This document shows, one piece after another, positions 15,267-26,873 of a stretch of 64,000 nucleotides of DNA (within the stretch, counting starts at the first letter, position 1; each line of letters begins with the position of its first letter). The stretch comes from Escherichia phage P896. The stretch lies in the sequence record OL451225.1; one strand, 5' to 3'. Below the pieces are notes generated by a model, which worked only from the letters and a program-made list of their open reading frames with translations, had not been told where the DNA came from and ran no database searches. The translations under genes were made by a program, and so were the position numbers.

Positions 15267-15694
15267 TGTTTATTATCCCTGATGATTACGAATTAACTCT
15301 TGAAAACATCGAAAGTGTTTCCGAAGAAGCTCAGGGACAATTTGATTCATTATCTGAAGCCTTAGAAAAAGACGATATAAATATTATTGTAGAAAACATG
15401 TTTGCAGCCAGTGAATACGAAAAAGCAACGGTTATCGGCGCTCTGAATGAAGGTGTTCAGCTTAACGAATTTATCGTTAAACATGTATCGTCTCGCGGTG
15501 AGTTAACCCGCACAAAAGACCGAGCTACTCGTAAGCGTAATGCTTTCCAAACAACTGGTCTTTCTAAAGCTAAACGTCGTCAAATTGCCCGTCTGGCTAC
15601 TAAAACGAAAAGAGCAAACCCATCTACGCAAATCAGAGCAGAGCGCAAGCGCAAAAAAGCTCGAGCTAAGCGTAAAGCATTCGGACTTGATTAA
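15266..15694 (+). CDS. 68: prohead core protein gp68
   Basis: 142 aa with basic C-terminus; T4 synteny. Confidence 0.8.
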
Positions 15695-16332
15695 TGGAAC
15701 AGAAACCAGAGTTACTAATCGAACACTGGGGTCAACCGGGCGAAATTAAAGATGGTGTACCTATGTTGGAATCTCATGATGGTTCCAGCAGCGGTTTAAA
15801 GCCAGGACTTTATATTGAAGGTATTTTCCTACAAGCTGAAGTTGTTAACCGTAATAAACGACTTTATCCTAAACATATTTTGGAAAAAGCCGTTGCGGAC
15901 TATATCGCCGAACAGGTTGAAACCAAGCAGTCTCTTGGAGAATTAAACCATCCACCTCGCGCAAACGTTGACCCTATGCAGGCAGCAATTATTATCGAGG
16001 AAATGTGGTGGAAAGGGAATGATGTATATGGCCGCGCGCGTATTATCGAAGGCGACCATGGCCCAGGCGATAAACTTGCTGCGAATATAAGAGCAGGTTG
16101 GATTCCTGGCGTATCTAGTCGTGGACTCGGTTCCCTGACTAAATCAGCAAAAGGTTATAGCATCGTTAATGAAGGTTTTAAATTGACGGTTGGAGTAGAT
16201 GCAGTATGGGGGCCAAGTGCTCCGGACGCTTGGGTCAAACCAAAGCAGATTACAGAATCACAAACGGCTGTTGCCGATACCAGTGCCGATGACGCCTTTA
16301 TGGCTCTCGCAGAGGCTTTAAAGACGTTATAA
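15694..16332 (+). CDS. 21: prohead core scaffold protein and protease gp21
   Basis: 212 aa, same length as T4 gp21; T4 synteny. Confidence 0.9.
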   Translation: MEQKPELLIEHWGQPGEIKDGVPMLESHDGSSSGLKPGLYIEGIFLQAEVVNRNKRLYPKHILEKAVADYIAEQVETKQSLGELNHPPRANVDPMQAAIIIEEMWWKGNDVYGRARIIEGDHGPGDKLAANIRAGWIPGVSSRGLGSLTKSAKGYSIVNEGFKLTVGVDAVWGPSAPDAWVKPKQITESQTAVADTSADDAFMALAEALKTL

Positions 16333-17204: not shown

Positions 17205-18764
17205 ATGAAAAAGAATGCATTAGTTCAAAAATGGTCCGCTCTGTTGGAAAACGAAGCTCTTCCGGAAATCGTTGGTGCTTCTAAACAAGCTATCATCGCT
17301 AAAATCTTTGAAAACCAGGAACAAGATATCCTGACCGCTCCAGAATACCGTGACGAAAAAATCTCCGAAGCATTTGGTTCTTTCCTGACCGAAGCTGAAA
17401 TCGGTGGTGACCATGGTTATGATGCTACCAATATCGCTGCTGGCCAGACCTCTGGTGCAGTAACTCAGATTGGGCCAGCAGTTATGGGTATGGTTCGTCG
17501 TGCTATCCCGCATCTGATTGCGTTTGATATTTGTGGCGTACAGCCTCTGAACAACCCGACTGGCCAGGTATTTGCCCTGCGTGCAGTTTACGGTAAAGAC
17601 CCTGTCGCTGCTGGTGCTAAAGAAGCTTTCCACCCGATGTATGCTCCGAACGCTATGTTCTCCGGTCAGGGCGCTGCTCAGACTTTTGAAGCATTGGCTG
17701 CAGGCAAAGTTCTGGAAGTTGGTAAAATTTATTCTCACTTCTTCGAAGCAACCGGTTCCGCACACTACCAGGCTGTTGAAGCTGTAACCGTTGATGCTGG
17801 TGCTACTGATGCTGCTAAACTTGACGCTGAAGTTACCAAACTGCTCGAAGCTGGTCAGCTGGCAGAAATCGCTGAAGGTATGGCTACCTCCATCGCCGAA
17901 CTGCAAGAAGGTTTTAACGGTTCCCAGGATAACCCGTGGAACGAAATGGGCTTCCGCATCGACAAACAAGTTATCGAAGCTAAATCCCGTCAGCTGAAAG
18001 CAAGCTACTCCATCGAACTGGCACAGGACCTCCGCGCTGTTCACGGTATGGATGCTGATGCCGAATTGAGTGGTATTCTGGCTACCGAAATTATGCTGGA
18101 AATCAACCGCGAAGTTATCGATTGGATTAACTACTCCGCACAGGTTGGTAAATCTGGTATGACCAACACCGTTGGCGCTAAAGCTGGTGTGTTTGACTTC
18201 CAGGACCCGATTGATATCCGTGGTGCTCGTTGGGCTGGTGAAAGCTTCAAAGCTTTACTGTTCCAGATTGATAAAGAAGCCGCTGAAATCGCTCGTCAGA
18301 CCGGTCGTGGTGCAGGTAACTTCATCATCGCTTCCCGTAACGTAGTTAACGTGCTGGCTGCTGTTGATACTTCTGTTAGTTATGCTGCTCAGGGTCTGGG
18401 TAAAGGTTTCAACGTTGACACCACTAAAGCTGTGTTCGCTGGTGTTCTGGGTGGCAAATACCGTGTCTATATCGACCAGTATGCTCGTGCAGATTACTTC
18501 ACCATCGGTTACAAAGGCGCTAACGAAATGGATGCTGGTATCTACTACGCACCATATGTTGCACTGACCCCGCTGCGTGGCTCTGACCCGAAAAACTTCC
18601 AGCCGGTTATGGGCTTCAAAACCCGTTACGGTATCGGTATCAACCCGTTTGCTGACCCTGCTGCTCAGGCTCCGACCAAGCGCATTCAGAATGGTATGCC
18701 GGACATCGTTAATAGCCTCGGCTTGAACGGTTACTTCCGTCGCGTATATGTTAAAGGAATTTAA
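17205..18764 (+). CDS. 23: major capsid protein gp23
   Basis: 519 aa; size and position as T4 gp23; codon usage typical of a highly expressed gene. Confidence 0.95.
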   Translation: MKKNALVQKWSALLENEALPEIVGASKQAIIAKIFENQEQDILTAPEYRDEKISEAFGSFLTEAEIGGDHGYDATNIAAGQTSGAVTQIGPAVMGMVRRAIPHLIAFDICGVQPLNNPTGQVFALRAVYGKDPVAAGAKEAFHPMYAPNAMFSGQGAAQTFEALAAGKVLEVGKIYSHFFEATGSAHYQAVEAVTVDAGATDAAKLDAEVTKLLEAGQLAEIAEGMATSIAELQEGFNGSQDNPWNEMGFRIDKQVIEAKSRQLKASYSIELAQDLRAVHGMDADAELSGILATEIMLEINREVIDWINYSAQVGKSGMTNTVGAKAGVFDFQDPIDIRGARWAGESFKALLFQIDKEAAEIARQTGRGAGNFIIASRNVVNVLAAVDTSVSYAAQGLGKGFNVDTTKAVFAGVLGGKYRVYIDQYARADYFTIGYKGANEMDAGIYYAPYVALTPLRGSDPKNFQPVMGFKTRYGIGINPFADPAAQAPTKRIQNGMPDIVNSLGLNGYFRRVYVKGI

Positions 18765-18782: not shown

Positions 18783-18815
18783 AAAAAGGGACCCTTGAGG
18801 TCCCTTTCTTGTTTT
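18783..18815. terminator. bidirectional intrinsic terminator between gene 23 and the convergent orphan gene
   Basis: GGGACCcttgaGGTCCC hairpin (18788-18804) flanked by A and T tracts. Confidence 0.65.
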
Positions 18816-19096
18816 CATACCATACCATTTAAATGAACTTCTACCCGGCGCTTGATGAGGTCTCTGAAGTTAACATTGTTTTCTTGAAGTTTCAACCAGT
18901 TACCATTTTTATCTTTAGTGTGAGTAGAATAATTACCATTCCACCAGAAATCAGTGTCATATGCTAAGTTTTCATATTTTTTAACTAGTTTGTTCAGAGC
19001 ATTACCATTAACACCATTCGGGTATTTGTTGACCAATGCAATAACTTCAATTTCCAATTTTTTAAAGGTGTTCAGAAGGAAAGTTGATTTGTTCAT
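18815..19096 (-). CDS. hypothetical early protein (orphan gene between 23 and 24)
   Basis: 93-aa ORF with GGAG RBS, preceded by an early-promoter cassette and followed by a terminator; no family recognised. Confidence 0.6.
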   Translation of the reverse strand: MNKSTFLLNTFKKLEIEVIALVNKYPNGVNGNALNKLVKKYENLAYDTDFWWNGNYSTHTKDKNGNWLKLQENNVNFRDLIKRRVEVHLNGMV

Positions 19097-19172: not shown

Positions 19173-19180
19173 TATAAATA
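19173..19180 (+). promoter_or_regulatory. late promoter TATAAATA for gene 24
   Basis: Exact TATAAATA 27 nt upstream of the gene 24 ATG. Confidence 0.6.
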
Positions 19181-19206
19181 AAGTATATCACAAAAGGAAA
19201 GCGCAA

Positions 19207-20487
19207 ATGGCAAAGATTAACAAATTACTGCGCGAGTCAACTACCACTACCAGCAACTCCTTGGGCCGCCCGAATCTTGTTGCTTTGACCCGCGCTACAA
19301 CCAAATTGATTTACCGCGATATTATCGCTGAACAACGTACGAACCAGCCAGTTGCGGCTCTGTACGGTGTTAAATATCTTACCCCTGATAATGAATTCAG
19401 TTTCCAAACCGGTGCCGTTTATGGCGGTGAAGTTGGTTCTAAAGACCGTGAAACTATCCCGGAATTTACAACCCCAACTCAAGCCGTAGCTAAAGGTGGA
19501 TACATTAAATTCCAGAATATCGTTTATAAAGCTCTGGTTGATAATCCATTTGCATCGACTACCGAAACTGTATTATCCGATGTTCTGCAAGAAGGTCTTA
19601 TTGCATTAACTATTCGTTTGGTTCCTGATGCGGCGCACACCGAGAAATTTGAAGCCGGTGATGTTGAGATTAGTAATGCTGTATTCCAGGTCAACAAATG
19701 GAATGCTCCGGTTAAAACACGTAAATTGAAAACTGCATTAACTGTTGAGCTTGCTCAGGATATGGAAGCAAATGGTTTTAATGCTCCTGCTTTCTTGGAA
19801 GACTTGCTTGCCACTATTATGGCAGATGAAATTAACAAAGATGTTCTTCAGTCTCTTATTACCGTTTCCAAGCGTTATAAAGTAACTGGTGTTTCTGACA
19901 ATGGCGTCATCGATTTAACATATGATGCAGCTCCAGAAGGTGCACGTAAACTGTACGAACTGGTTTGCGAAATGAACTCCGAGATTCAGAAAACTACATC
20001 TTATTCCGGTACCTTTGTTGTTGCCTCTAGCCGTGTTGCTGCTATGTTGGCCGGTTCTGGTTGGCTGAAGCATAAACCTGAAGACGAACAATGGCTTCCT
20101 GAAACAGCGTACGGTTATTTGATTAATGGCCTCCCTGTATTCTGTGATGTTAACAGTCCATTGGATTATGTAACCGTTGGCGTTAAAGAAAATTACGGTG
20201 GAAACGAAGTCGTAGGCTCAATCTTCTATGCTCCTTATACCGAAGGTCTGGACTTAGATGATGAAGAGCATGTAGGCGCGTTTAAGGTCATTGTGGACCC
20301 TGACAGTTTGCAACCAGCTATCTCTCTGATGGTTCGTTATGCACTTTCAGCTAACCCGTACACCGTTGCTAAAGACGATAAAGAAGCTCGTATTATCGAT
20401 GCAACCAATATGGATTTAATGGCCGGTCAGAGCAATATGTCTTATCTGCTCGGTGTTAAACTTCCGCCAATCATTTATGAGGCGTAA
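19207..20487 (+). CDS. 24: capsid vertex protein gp24
   Basis: 426 aa; N-terminus MAKINKLLRESTTTTSNSLGRPNLVALTRATTKLIY recognised as T4 gp24-like. Confidence 0.9.
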   Translation: MAKINKLLRESTTTTSNSLGRPNLVALTRATTKLIYRDIIAEQRTNQPVAALYGVKYLTPDNEFSFQTGAVYGGEVGSKDRETIPEFTTPTQAVAKGGYIKFQNIVYKALVDNPFASTTETVLSDVLQEGLIALTIRLVPDAAHTEKFEAGDVEISNAVFQVNKWNAPVKTRKLKTALTVELAQDMEANGFNAPAFLEDLLATIMADEINKDVLQSLITVSKRYKVTGVSDNGVIDLTYDAAPEGARKLYELVCEMNSEIQKTTSYSGTFVVASSRVAAMLAGSGWLKHKPEDEQWLPETAYGYLINGLPVFCDVNSPLDYVTVGVKENYGGNEVVGSIFYAPYTEGLDLDDEEHVGAFKVIVDPDSLQPAISLMVRYALSANPYTVAKDDKEARIIDATNMDLMAGQSNMSYLLGVKLPPIIYEA

Positions 20488-21771
20488 ATGCAAAAGATTA
20501 ACGCACTAATTCACGAATCAACATTAACGGCGGCCAACCAGGTCGCCCGTCCTAATTTGCTTTCTTATACTCAGGCTACGAATAAACGAATTTTTAAAGC
20601 ACTCGTTGCTGAACAGAAAACTACCCAGCCTGTTGCGGCGCTGTATGGTGTTCGCGTTCTTAACCCAGATGATAAAATGACTTATCTTGGCGGAGCAACA
20701 TTTGCAGGCCAGATTGGTATGTTCGAGCGTAAGAATATTCCAGAATTTACGAACAAAGACGAAGCTTATGCAGTCGGCGATATGTTCCAGTTTGAAAGTG
20801 TTGTGTTCAAAGTTTTGGAAGCATCACCATTCGCCGGGACTCTCGAAACTGATTTGGGCGAAGTTATTTCTGAAGCCATTGCGGCTGGCCATATAAGAAT
20901 GATGTCAGATGCGGCTTTCACTGATAAATTTGAAAAAGGTCATCCTGAAATTGCTGAAGCTGGTTTTCGTATTGATAAATGGCAGACTGAAGTTAAATCC
21001 AGAAAGCTGAAAACTTCTTTAACTGTCGAGCTTGCTCAAGACCTGGAAGCGAACGGTTTCGATGCAACGGATTTCATTGATAATATTCTCGGTATCCAAA
21101 TGGCAGAGGAAATTAATAAGGATGTACTGCAATCCCTTATTACTGTCAGTTCTCGCTTCAAGGTGCAAGGTGTTTCTGAAAAAGGTGTATTGAATCTAAC
21201 TGACCCGAAATATGATAACGCTCAGGACCGTGCGCGAACCCTGTATTATTATATGTGTGAAATGAACTCCGCAGTTCAACGTCAGACTTCGTTTGCTGGT
21301 ACATATGCAGTCGCTTCTTCCCGGTGTGCAGCTATTTTAGCAGCTTCTGGCTGGGTTGAGAAAAAGGAAGACCAGGATGAATTAGCCTATGGCGTTCTGA
21401 AGAACGGTTTACCACTTTATGCAGATATGAATAGTCCATGTGATTATGTTATTGTTGGTGTAAATGCTGATATGGGTGAAGGTCAGACGGTCGCATCTTT
21501 GTATTATGCGCCTTATACGGAAGGACTTAGTGAAGTTGATGATGAGGGTGATACCTCGGTCGGGGAATTCAAGGTTATTGTTGACCCTGAAAGCTTGCAG
21601 CCTACTGTTGCGCTATTAGCTCGTTATGCATTGACAGCAAACCCTTATACGGTTGCGAAAGATGATAAAGAAGCTCGCATTATTGATGGTGCTGATATGG
21701 ATAAGATGGCCAACCAAAGCCAATTGAGTTCTTATCTTGGTGTTAAACTTCCACCACTGGAAAAAGAATAA
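20488..21771 (+). CDS. second gp24-like capsid vertex protein (tandem paralog)
   Basis: 427 aa; by eye roughly half identical to the preceding gp24 (shared TQPVAALYGV, SRKLKT, LTVELAQD, EINKDVLQSLITVS, ANPYTVAKDDKEARIID motifs). Confidence 0.85.
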   Translation: MQKINALIHESTLTAANQVARPNLLSYTQATNKRIFKALVAEQKTTQPVAALYGVRVLNPDDKMTYLGGATFAGQIGMFERKNIPEFTNKDEAYAVGDMFQFESVVFKVLEASPFAGTLETDLGEVISEAIAAGHIRMMSDAAFTDKFEKGHPEIAEAGFRIDKWQTEVKSRKLKTSLTVELAQDLEANGFDATDFIDNILGIQMAEEINKDVLQSLITVSSRFKVQGVSEKGVLNLTDPKYDNAQDRARTLYYYMCEMNSAVQRQTSFAGTYAVASSRCAAILAASGWVEKKEDQDELAYGVLKNGLPLYADMNSPCDYVIVGVNADMGEGQTVASLYYAPYTEGLSEVDDEGDTSVGEFKVIVDPESLQPTVALLARYALTANPYTVAKDDKEARIIDGADMDKMANQSQLSSYLGVKLPPLEKE

Positions 21772-21793
21772 GGGCCGCAAGGCCCTTTTTTTT
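21772..21793. terminator. bidirectional terminator between the 24 paralog and rnlB
   Basis: GGGCCgcaaGGCCC hairpin followed by T8. Confidence 0.65.
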
Positions 21794-23394: not shown

Positions 23395-23411
23395 GTTGAG
23401 TTGGTGAAGCT

Positions 23412-23441
23412 ATCTTAACATGGAATTTTTAACTTGTAAAC
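23412..23441 (-). promoter_or_regulatory. early promoter upstream of the 24.x-like genes
   Basis: Minus strand GTTTAC, 18 bp, TAAGAT. Confidence 0.45.
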
Positions 23442-23487
23442 AGGGTTTTTATGCCAGGCAACGTTTGTACAGTACCATAAAAACAAA

Positions 23488-23509
23488 GGGACCCGAAGGT
23501 CCCTTTTTA
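23488..23509. terminator. terminator downstream of hoc
   Basis: GGGACCcgaaGGTCCC hairpin flanked by A/T tracts. Confidence 0.6.
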
Positions 23510-23510
23510 A

Positions 23511-25319: not shown

Positions 25320-25337
25320 GATGAACCTCGGTTAGTG

Positions 25338-25345
25338 TATAAATA
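25338..25345 (+). promoter_or_regulatory. late promoter TATAAATA for uvsW
   Basis: Exact TATAAATA 29 nt upstream of the uvsW ATG. Confidence 0.6.
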
Positions 25346-25373
25346 TAGATATATTTATTACCTTGGAATCATC

Positions 25374-26873
25374 ATGGATATTAAAATCAACTTTCTAAAT
25401 TTTAGTCACGTGCATGTTGAATGTGAAGATGGAATCTTCTACGAACTCCGTGATTACTTCAGCTTCGAAGCTGAAAACTATCGCTTCAATCCAAAGTTCA
25501 AGCAGGGAGTTTGGGACGGACGAATCCGCCTCCTGGATTACAATCGTAAATTACCATACGGTTTGGTTAATCAAATTAAAAAGTTCGCTGACCAGTTTGG
25601 TTATTCATTCTGGATTGACCCGCAAATCACCGAGAAAGAAGAAATCTCTCGCGAAGAATTCGACAAATGGGTCGAGTCAAAAGAAATCTATTCAGGCAAT
25701 ACCAAGATAACGCCCCATTGGTATCAATCTGACGCCGTATATGATGGTCTGGTCAACAGAAGAAAGATTCTGAACTTACCTACGTCTGCAGGTAAAAGCC
25801 TCATCCAGGCGCTTCTGGCGCGATATTATCTCGAGAACTATGAAGGCAAGGTGCTTATCCTTGTTCCCACAACTGCCCTTGTCGACCAGATGATTAATGA
25901 CTTTGTTGATTATCGACTTTTCCCTCGTGCAGCTTGTCTGGGTATTCGTTCCGGGACTAAACGCGATTCTGATGCGATGATTTATGTATCGACTTATCAG
26001 ACGGCTGTAAAACAACCTAAAGAATGGTTTGAACAGTTTGGCCAGTTTATGAATGACGAATGTCATATGGCTACAGGTAAATCGATTTCGACGGTTATCG
26101 AAGGCCTTACGAATTGCATGTTTAAATTTGGTCTGTCAGGTTCACTCCGTGATGGCAAAGCCAACCTTATGCAATATATGGGTCTGTTTGGTGATATCTT
26201 TAAACCAGTATCAACATCCAAATTGATGGAAGATGGCCAGGTTACTGACCTTAAAATAAATAGTATTTTCCTTCGTTACCCTGATGAATTCACCGTTAAA
26301 ATGAAAGGTAAAACTTATCAGGATGAAATCAAGGTAATTACAAAAGCTACACGCCGAAATAAATGGGTAACAAACCTTGCACTCAAGCTTTCTAAAAAAG
26401 ATGAAAACGTCTTTTTGATGTTTAAGAATATCGAGCACGGTAAATCGATGTTTGAAATGATTAAAGAAGCTGGTCATGAGAAAGTGTATTATGTTTCCGG
26501 GGAAGTTGATACCGAAACCCGTAATGCTCTGAAGGTCATGGCCGAGAATGGAAAGGGAATTATTGTTGTAGCTTCATATGGTGTATTCTCAACGGGTATT
26601 TCCGTTAAAAACCTCCATCATATTATTTTCGCCCACCCGGTCAAGTCAAAGGTAATTGTACTCCAGACAATTGGCCGCGTGCTTCGAAAACATGAATCCA
26701 AATCGACCGCAAACGTGTGGGACATTGTGGATGATATGGGGGTCAAACCAAAATCAGCAAACGCTAAAAAGAAATATGTTCATATTAACTTTGCGCTTAA
26801 ACATGCACTAGAACGTATTCAGCGGTATGCAGACGAAAAATTCAATTATGTAATTAAACAGGTGGAAATATAA
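25374..26873 (+). CDS. uvsW: UvsW DNA/RNA helicase
   Basis: Start MDIKINFLNFSHVHVECEDGIFYELRDYFSFEAENYRFNP; Walker A LPTSAGKS; the track ORF from 25335 is a GTG-extended artefact. Confidence 0.9.
   Translation: MDIKINFLNFSHVHVECEDGIFYELRDYFSFEAENYRFNPKFKQGVWDGRIRLLDYNRKLPYGLVNQIKKFADQFGYSFWIDPQITEKEEISREEFDKWVESKEIYSGNTKITPHWYQSDAVYDGLVNRRKILNLPTSAGKSLIQALLARYYLENYEGKVLILVPTTALVDQMINDFVDYRLFPRAACLGIRSGTKRDSDAMIYVSTYQTAVKQPKEWFEQFGQFMNDECHMATGKSISTVIEGLTNCMFKFGLSGSLRDGKANLMQYMGLFGDIFKPVSTSKLMEDGQVTDLKINSIFLRYPDEFTVKMKGKTYQDEIKVITKATRRNKWVTNLALKLSKKDENVFLMFKNIEHGKSMFEMIKEAGHEKVYYVSGEVDTETRNALKVMAENGKGIIVVASYGVFSTGISVKNLHHIIFAHPVKSKVIVLQTIGRVLRKHESKSTANVWDIVDDMGVKPKSANAKKKYVHINFALKHALERIQRYADEKFNYVIKQVEI

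Follow-up and report, generated by a model that had tools for sequence, protein, structure and literature searches.

A probable late operon for two distinct gp24-class capsid vertex proteins in Escherichia phage P896 and its relatives

Phage T4 is the reference model of prolate capsid assembly. It carries one gene 24, whose product – the capsid vertex protein gp24, represented by Protein Data Bank (PDB) entry 1YUE and in situ by 5VF3, 7VRT and 7VS5 – is used at the 11 non-portal vertices of the head. gp24 and the major capsid protein gp23 of T4-like phages are paralogs within one HK97-fold family (PF07068); they are about 21-29% identical, with gp23 in a hexamer role and gp24 in a pentamer role (PMC3012670, PMC10580926). 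Here, we examine Escherichia phage P896 (sequence record OL451225.1), in which two gp24-class genes, referred to as 24a and 24b, lie side by side downstream of gene 23; "the window" denotes the whole stretch of 64,000 nucleotides that was analysed. Where T4 has one vertex gene the window has two, apparently co-transcribed, and they represent a further paralog diversification within the same family, again of the pentamer class, with 24a and 24b both of pentamer type and 56% identical. We consider it likely that the pair is a conserved bicistronic late operon encoding two distinct and functional gp24-class vertex proteins, which probably form separate homopentamers.

The existence of this gene pair is already known from public records. 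GenBank entries name the two genes 24(1) and 24(2) in VR7 (HM563683), 24a and 24b in JS98 (EF469154), and 'capsid vertex protein I/II' in VR20, VR25 and VR26; Salmonella phage CF-SP2 (Gelderlandvirus), Klebsiella phage F48 (Marfavirus) and likewise Erwinia phage FBB1 each have two 'capsid vertex protein' genes. The pairs of VR7, JS98, VR20/25/26, the S16-type Gelderlandvirus phages, F48 and FBB1 are the same feature as that in the window, with order, junction and flanks alike. Over a 5-kb region the window shares 98% nucleotide identity with Escherichia phage PSD2001; the figure is 96% for VR20, 92% for VR7 (genus Gaprivervirus) and 83-84% for members of Dhakavirus, among them JS98 and Bp7. 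Its two proteins are 95-99% identical to the VR7 pair and 90-96% to the JS98 pair, and its 24b matches the TH41 and VR20 copies, as well as a cluster of 71 database sequences, at 100% identity. A tblastn search with 24b (E<1e-40) matched 1,416 phage records at 1,534 places, which puts the number of records with two gp24-class genes at approximately 118; for 106 records, identity of the best match to 24b is 80% or more. The hosts of two-copy phages include Escherichia, Salmonella, Klebsiella, Yersinia and Erwinia, and orthologs of 24b are present in at least Gaprivervirus, Dhakavirus, Gelderlandvirus, Marfavirus and FBB1-type phages. Records of the VR7/JS98 type name both genes and give no function for the second copy, and a full-text literature search found no paper on a second gene 24 or its function. 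A 2004 paper on JS98 in the Journal of Bacteriology reportedly mentions a 'gene 24 duplication', and the two-copy VR phages are said to be low-temperature coliphages. The value of the locus lies in a functional question and in an evolutionary reframing – an apparently ancient pair, not a recent duplication – rather than in the pair's existence.

The two genes are arranged as follows:

19207..20487, + strand: gene 24a, 426 amino acids (aa), ATG start, one stop (TAA); T4 gp24 ortholog, capsid vertex protein
20488..21771, + strand: gene 24b, 427 aa, ATG start, one stop; second gp24-class vertex paralog

A previous reading of the window from sequence alone (the sequence-only reading) had described two adjacent gp24-like genes of 426 and 427 aa, roughly half identical, and both statements are confirmed, the first to the exact coordinate. 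The 24b ATG (20488) directly follows the 24a TAA (20485-20487) with zero spacer. In a full-length BLASTP alignment the proteins share 56% identity and 75% positives with 10 gap positions (E 5e-175), far beyond chance. Both match T4 gp24 (1YUE) across residues 1-424 and the Pfam family PF07068 (Gp23 family; cutoff 24.4), with 326 bits for 24a (residues 19-417) and 328 bits for 24b (19-419), and both match PHROG 138. The first gene was said to resemble T4 gp24 closely, which holds relative to the second – 650 bits and about 69-70% identity for 24a versus 498 bits and about 56% for 24b – and not in absolute terms. 24a agrees with T4 gp24 also in length, in its slot after gene 23, in having a late promoter and in the LRE|S motif discussed below, and 24b is a full-length homolog of gp24 with the same domain order. 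T4 gp23 chains match only weakly (~48 bits with 24a and ~50 bits with 24b); with full-length homology and T4 gp24 scores far above those of gp23, both products fall within the gp24 family. The second copy is gp24-like, as had been proposed, and is a diverged paralog with an intact reading frame and a single stop. That gp24 is itself a paralog of gp23 is also borne out here, in that PF07068 is common to all of these proteins and the window's own gp23 is 28-29% identical to 24a and 24b across about 250-280 residues (PMC3012670, PMC10580926).

At the nucleotide level the codon-aligned genes are 62% identical, the longest exact run in common is 14 nt, and synonymous divergence (dS) is saturated at ~1.7. 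No recent gene conversion has taken place, and little homology is left by which recombination could collapse the pair. An AlphaFold2 model of 24b is of low confidence (predicted local distance difference test score, pLDDT, 61.6; predicted template-modelling score, pTM, 0.67), and its nearest PDB folds are T4 gp24 chains (E 8e-40, template-modelling score 0.56), followed by gp23 and then by further HK97-fold proteins. An HK97-like fold with an inserted I domain is effectively implied for 24b by its 56% identity to 1YUE. The PDB entries of the gp24/gp23 family are T4 proteins only.

The signals and neighbouring head genes that frame the pair are:

19173..19180, + strand: T4-type late promoter TATAAATA, 27 nt upstream of the 24a start
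19194..19199, + strand: Shine-Dalgarno sequence AAGGAA of 24a, 7 nt before the ATG, read from the sequence
20479..20482, + strand: Shine-Dalgarno sequence GAGG of 24b, within the final codons of 24a
21770-21787 plus a T run, to 21795, no strand assigned: bidirectional intrinsic terminator, AAGGGCC-GCAA-GGCCCTT then the T run
18785..18815 (hairpin 18785-18807), no strand assigned: terminator hairpin 3' of gene 23, splitting the gene 23 transcript from the 24a-24b unit
17205..18764, + strand: gene 23, encoding the 519-aa major capsid protein; hexamer partner of the 24a and 24b products and the older paralog of both
15694..16332, + strand: gene 21, prohead protease, on the basis of the VR7 annotation

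The head module runs in the order 20-67-68-21-22-23-(small open reading frame)-24a-24b-rnlB, and 24a and 24b occupy the late-transcribed slot downstream of gene 23 that is expected of the gp24 family. The promoter motif at 19173-19180 is the sole copy between 17057 and 22819, where the next copies lie, and none precedes 24b. The window as a whole has 20 copies against 4.3 expected; nearly all point along the local direction of the genes, in keeping with a window in which late structural genes predominate. Terminator-like hairpins were found only after gene 23 and after 24b, with none between 24a and 24b, and the terminator at 21770 closes both the 24a-24b operon and the convergent rnlB gene. 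The GAGG within the end of 24a, together with the abutting TAA and ATG, suggests translational coupling of 24b. Because there is one late promoter, a coupled junction and a single terminator at the end, 24a and 24b are predicted to constitute a conserved bicistronic late operon from which both vertex proteins would be made together during head assembly.

This layout is shared widely. A late promoter is at the same position in VR7, JS98, CF-SP2, F48 and two metagenomic lineages (L039 and L041), and in all eight two-copy loci examined the 24a/24b junction measures 0, -1 or -4 nt and a hairpin lies 3' of 24b; these loci come from lineages whose divergence extends to 66-70% identity. In L039 and L041 the 24b protein is only 69-70% identical to that of the window, yet the full layout is kept; a third contig, L042, has the same junction and hairpin and stops before the promoter region.

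Both genes are under strong purifying selection, comparable to that on gp23. Ratios of nonsynonymous to synonymous divergence (dN/dS, by the Nei-Gojobori method) for the window versus VR7 are 0.053 for 24a, 0.026 for 24b and 0.071 for gp23, and those versus JS98 are 0.050, 0.021 and 0.033, respectively. In the CF-SP2 and F48 comparisons synonymous sites are at or near saturation with the proteins still 73-84% identical; between the window and F48, protein identity is 80.5% for 24b and 72.8% for 24a. The second gene is at least as conserved as the first and is not a decaying copy.

The genes also travel as a pair. Among IMG/VR loci with a 24b-type gene (78-100% identity), a 24a-type gene is directly upstream in 16 of 16. 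A search of 5.8 billion proteins yielded a graded series of 24b relatives, at 100, 91, 85 and so on to 77% identity and then at 69-66%, many of which have a 24a-like protein on the same contig. Of the divergent 24b-like proteins, three – P0017 (from Erwinia phage FBB1), P0019 and P0020 – were looked up, and each is the second gene of a gp23/24a-like/24b-like array. Among the loci examined (the 16 IMG/VR loci, the three divergent pairs and TH57) there was no 24b without a 24a, and no member of a 24b-bearing lineage lacking 24b was seen in the genomes examined. The sole close relative with reduced coverage of the region, TH57, has a deletion that takes only the small open reading frame between genes 23 and 24a and leaves both vertex genes intact. 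Both genes are retained throughout the roughly one hundred or more genomes with 24b.

The sequence-only reading had described the locus as a tandem duplication of the resident gene 24, and this the phylogeny does not sustain. In a neighbour-joining tree of 20 sequences, 24a groups with gp24 of T4, an RB69-type phage (ST0), a Karamvirus phage (Entb_43) and PEi20, and 24b falls outside this crown clade with 99.7% bootstrap support. The crown clade excluding 24b is recovered in 98.5-100% of replicates with a distant-gp24 root and with Poisson and gamma distances (alpha 2, 1 and 0.5), in 88.5% with a gp23 root, and in 100% for a set of 65 sequences; 24a and 24b are sisters in 0% of replicates under four distance models. 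The 24b stem branch is 0.216 long, compared with 0.02-0.07 for neighbouring branches, and is placed near single-copy Jiaodavirus JD18. In a tree of 140 sequences that includes the divergent FBB1-type pairs, which break the 24b stem, all 24b proteins form one clade (100%), and all 24a proteins together with all single-copy crown gp24 proteins form another (100%). Two-copy-phage 24a is never monophyletic (0% in the 140-sequence tree), because FBB1-type 24a lies at the base of the crown (83-86%) and T4, Moonvirus, Karamvirus, Kanagawavirus and other single-copy phages lie between it and the 24a proteins of Marfavirus, Gelderlandvirus, Dhakavirus and Gaprivervirus. Individual characters agree: 24b has the JD18 state against the crown at eight sites, with only one to four sites favouring a duplication inside the two-copy lineage, and two indels (alignment columns ~264-267 and ~318-327) unite the crown, being found neither in 24b nor in JD18 or the outgroups. 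Comparison of one- and two-copy relatives upholds the second gene as a diverged paralog and places it outside the crown that holds both 24a and T4 gp24. Long-branch attraction was rejected as the cause of this deep placement, which held under gamma distances, the gp23 root, denser sampling, and the site and indel characters. A recent tandem duplication in situ was rejected likewise: the copies are not sisters (0%), and no residual nucleotide likeness or conversion tracts are seen.

These comparisons indicate a single origin of 24b, no later than the base of the crown, so that the pair would predate the radiation of T4's close relatives. Its history is either an ancient duplication followed by several losses of 24b, with the single gene of T4 a secondary state, or movement of a 24b cassette between lineages by recombination in the conserved flanks. 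The alternative branching orders among the crown, the JD18/TG1 group and 24b have 10-22% support each, and a gp23 tree used as a proxy for the species has 19-58% support at its deep nodes and disagrees with the 24a tree over the position of the single-copy Edwardsiella phage PEi20. By gp23, PEi20 groups with Gaprivervirus and Dhakavirus (92%), and by 24a it is outside a group of Marfavirus, Gelderlandvirus, Dhakavirus and Gaprivervirus (82%); this conflict points to mosaic exchange within the head-gene module. An origin of single-copy gp24 as a 24a x 24b recombinant was rejected, as there are no clean breakpoints, JD18 has ancestral states and PEi20 has a plain 24a ortholog. Both the ancient single origin of the pair and the possible loss of 24b in T4-type phages seem to be unaddressed in the literature searched.

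Across five two-copy genomes, 178 alignment columns carry a single, unvarying residue across both clades and 53 are fixed differences between 24a and 24b. Because 27 of the fixed differences are derived in 24b and 10 in 24a, 24b is the copy that changed. The differences are concentrated at T4 aa 22-39, where 7 of 18 positions are fixed differences (odds ratio 5.1, p 0.003 before correction). The T4 head structures provide landmarks for gp24: within a pentamer, aa 26-29 of one subunit pair with its neighbour's I-domain linker; aa 11-20 extend to the hexamer next to it; gp23 hexamers are contacted by I-linker 2 (aa 143-154) and by the AP loop; and the loop at aa 348-359 is flexible (PMC9546572). 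Near aa 239-241, 24b has three additional residues relative to 24a in the BLASTP alignment, two of which are fixed in the five genomes; at T4 aa ~294-298 it is four residues shorter, with five fixed substitutions nearby; and in the aa 348-359 loop it has a three-residue insertion in four of the five genomes, F48 being without it. The I-domain region (aa 101-150) contains 20 columns that are conserved only in 24b and variable in 24a, and across the P-domain/spine-helix region (aa 158-230) and the C-terminus conservation of 24b matches that of 24a. Relative to T4 gp24, 24b is distinguished by two indels, the 27 derived fixed substitutions and the altered aa 22-39 segment. The predicted gp21 cleavage motif at residues 8-11 reads LRE|S in 24a and IHE|S in 24b, and neither E10 nor S11 varies among 37 aligned homologs. 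The gp21 prohead protease cuts the first 10 residues off T4 gp24 (PMC9546572), and both 24a and 24b would be processed by gp21 after Glu10.

We propose that both vertex proteins are made simultaneously, late in infection, from one operon, that gp21 removes the first 10 residues of each, and that pentamers of both most likely occupy non-portal vertices of the prolate head. 24a and 24b would probably form separate homopentamers and divide the labour between them; they are likely to be non-redundant, because the pair is never reduced and because fixed differences are enriched where adjacent pentamer subunits pair. A candidate basis for such a division is offered by the three geometric classes of non-portal vertex – one apical, five in the distal ring and five portal-proximal – and the specialised vertices raised by the sequence-only reading are plausible. 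24b presumably split early from the lineage of 24a and T4 gp24, changed fast on its stem branch and was then tightly conserved. A more detailed scenario, in which the two-gene state is ancestral, T4 is secondarily single-copy, and 24a and 24b homopentamers sit at different vertex classes (for example the apical versus the ten shoulder vertices, or the distal versus the portal-proximal ring), is possible but on present evidence doubtful. If true, vertex-class-specific homopentamers of 24a and 24b would be the first position-specific penton proteins in a tailed-phage capsid.

Several observations weigh against two vertex proteins in separate homopentamers. The same kind of prolate head is built with a single gp24 by T4, RB69-type phages, Karamvirus, Moonvirus, Kanagawavirus and Jiaodavirus. 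In T4 all 55 gp24 subunits look alike, one protein occupying the 11 non-portal vertices (PMC9546572), and because T4 fills all 11 with one protein, head geometry does not force two. T4 gp24 can even be made dispensable through point mutations in gp23 (PMC3012670, PMC9546572). A search of the literature and PDB found no virion proteomics or capsid structure of any two-copy phage; mass spectrometry of Jiaodavirus virions (PMC13119998) and the proteome of Morganella phage MP1 (PMC5384007) both come from single-copy phages. The enrichment at aa 22-39 barely survives correction for 12 tests (p about 0.04), and that of the pooled contact elements is modest (odds ratio 2.3, p 0.02). The segment at T4 aa ~294-298 is a putative equivalent of the AP loop by an anchor-based mapping from gp23 numbering, made without coordinates; the 24b model (pLDDT ~62) is of low confidence and was used to assign the fold only, not interfaces; and the trees are distance-based neighbour-joining, not maximum likelihood.

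The most obvious alternative is that the two proteins are redundant or conditionally alternative, either being able to fill all 11 vertices, with the pair kept as insurance – for instance where a host defence or protease is able to recognise one of the forms, or to allow assembly when temperature or host changes. One gp24 is enough in T4 and many relatives, bypass of gp24 is possible (PMC3012670, PMC9546572), and the outer I-domain region, variable in 24a and conserved in 24b over the 20 columns noted above, looks as if the two proteins meet differing pressures. Frequent loss would be expected of a spare copy, yet no genome with 24b alone and no 24b-less member of a 24b-bearing lineage was seen, and the very low dN/dS of both genes speaks the same way. 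The shared promoter and apparent translational coupling in the lineages examined give no sign of conditional expression, and the range of hosts, from Escherichia, Salmonella and Klebsiella to Yersinia and Erwinia, argues against a single host-specific pressure. We regard redundancy as unlikely. Mixed pentamers, in which 24a and 24b share a vertex in a fixed or random mixture, would fit with co-translation from one mRNA and with the 178 invariant shared columns, which include much of the spine-helix/P-domain (aa 158-230) and the C-terminal part. Two subunit types cannot sit symmetrically in a five-fold capsomer, and the fixed differences cluster where adjacent subunits pair (aa 22-39), as separate self-recognition predicts, making such mixtures improbable.

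It is more improbable still that 24b is no shell subunit at all and is missing from the mature outer lattice, acting instead as an assembly factor, as a prohead component that is transient or scaffold-associated, or as an internal protein. Its long stem (0.216 versus 0.02-0.07) and 27 derived fixed changes are such that its function may have shifted; against this, it retains its full length, every domain and the cleavage motif, with 56% identity to 1YUE over 1-424, its P-domain, spine-helix and C-terminus are conserved as in 24a, and a dN/dS of 0.02 is unexpected without a lattice constraint. Hardly any credence attaches to a recent, lineage-specific tandem duplication with a drifting second copy. 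Adjacency, the same orientation and nearly equal length are what such an event would leave, but 24a and 24b are monophyletic in 0% of replicates, dS is saturated (~1.7) with 62% nucleotide identity, 24b orthologs span at least five phage groups, and dN/dS is lower in 24b than in 24a; the tree, the saturated dS, the spread of orthologs and the low 24b dN/dS together refute it.

The preferred reading of two distinct vertex proteins in separate homopentamers bears on how vertices are told apart, and head length set, in the T4 model of prolate assembly. The gp24-bypass mutants of T4 (gp23 N381S, A387T and K420R) show the vertex occupant to be evolutionarily flexible, as it is here, and they show that slight alterations at the interfaces inside a capsomer determine which oligomer is made (PMC9546572). 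Bypass mutants drop the need for a vertex protein, whereas two-copy phages keep an extra one under strong selection. A large group of T4 relatives, many of them used in phage therapy, has long kept two vertex proteins in this way, and the retained pair suggests either that the vertices are not all equivalent or that there is a requirement in vertex assembly that T4 has lost or meets otherwise.

Several features of the surrounding region were also noted. Between genes 23 and 24a, an open reading frame of 93 aa (18815-19096, - strand) matches PHROG 6003, a family of unknown function, and gave no hit in a Pfam search. Two sigma-70-like promoters lie just upstream of it on the - strand (19165-19137 and 19122-19095), and it sits in the slot held by the segD homing endonuclease in T4. 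Because it is missing in TH57, CF-SP2 and F48, the gap between gene 23 and 24a is a variable insertion site. VR7 has two additional + strand genes between 24.3 and hoc (L043 23517-25746), coding for a collagen-repeat protein and a second Hoc-like protein, which are not present in the window (23395-23510). FBB1-type contigs have unknown + strand genes directly 3' of 24b (L042 2676-4506; L039 4890-6427), one with a faint collagen Pfam hit. These collagen-repeat, Hoc-like and FBB1-type neighbours may be extra capsid-decoration genes travelling beside the vertex genes. In the 64-kb window a scan found no tRNA genes, and no Rfam family reached its gathering threshold. The UvsW helicase open reading frame (25335-26873) begins at a GTG in the mechanical call (512 aa), and VR7 annotates 499 aa; translation probably starts instead at the ATG some 13 codons downstream (MDIKINF...).

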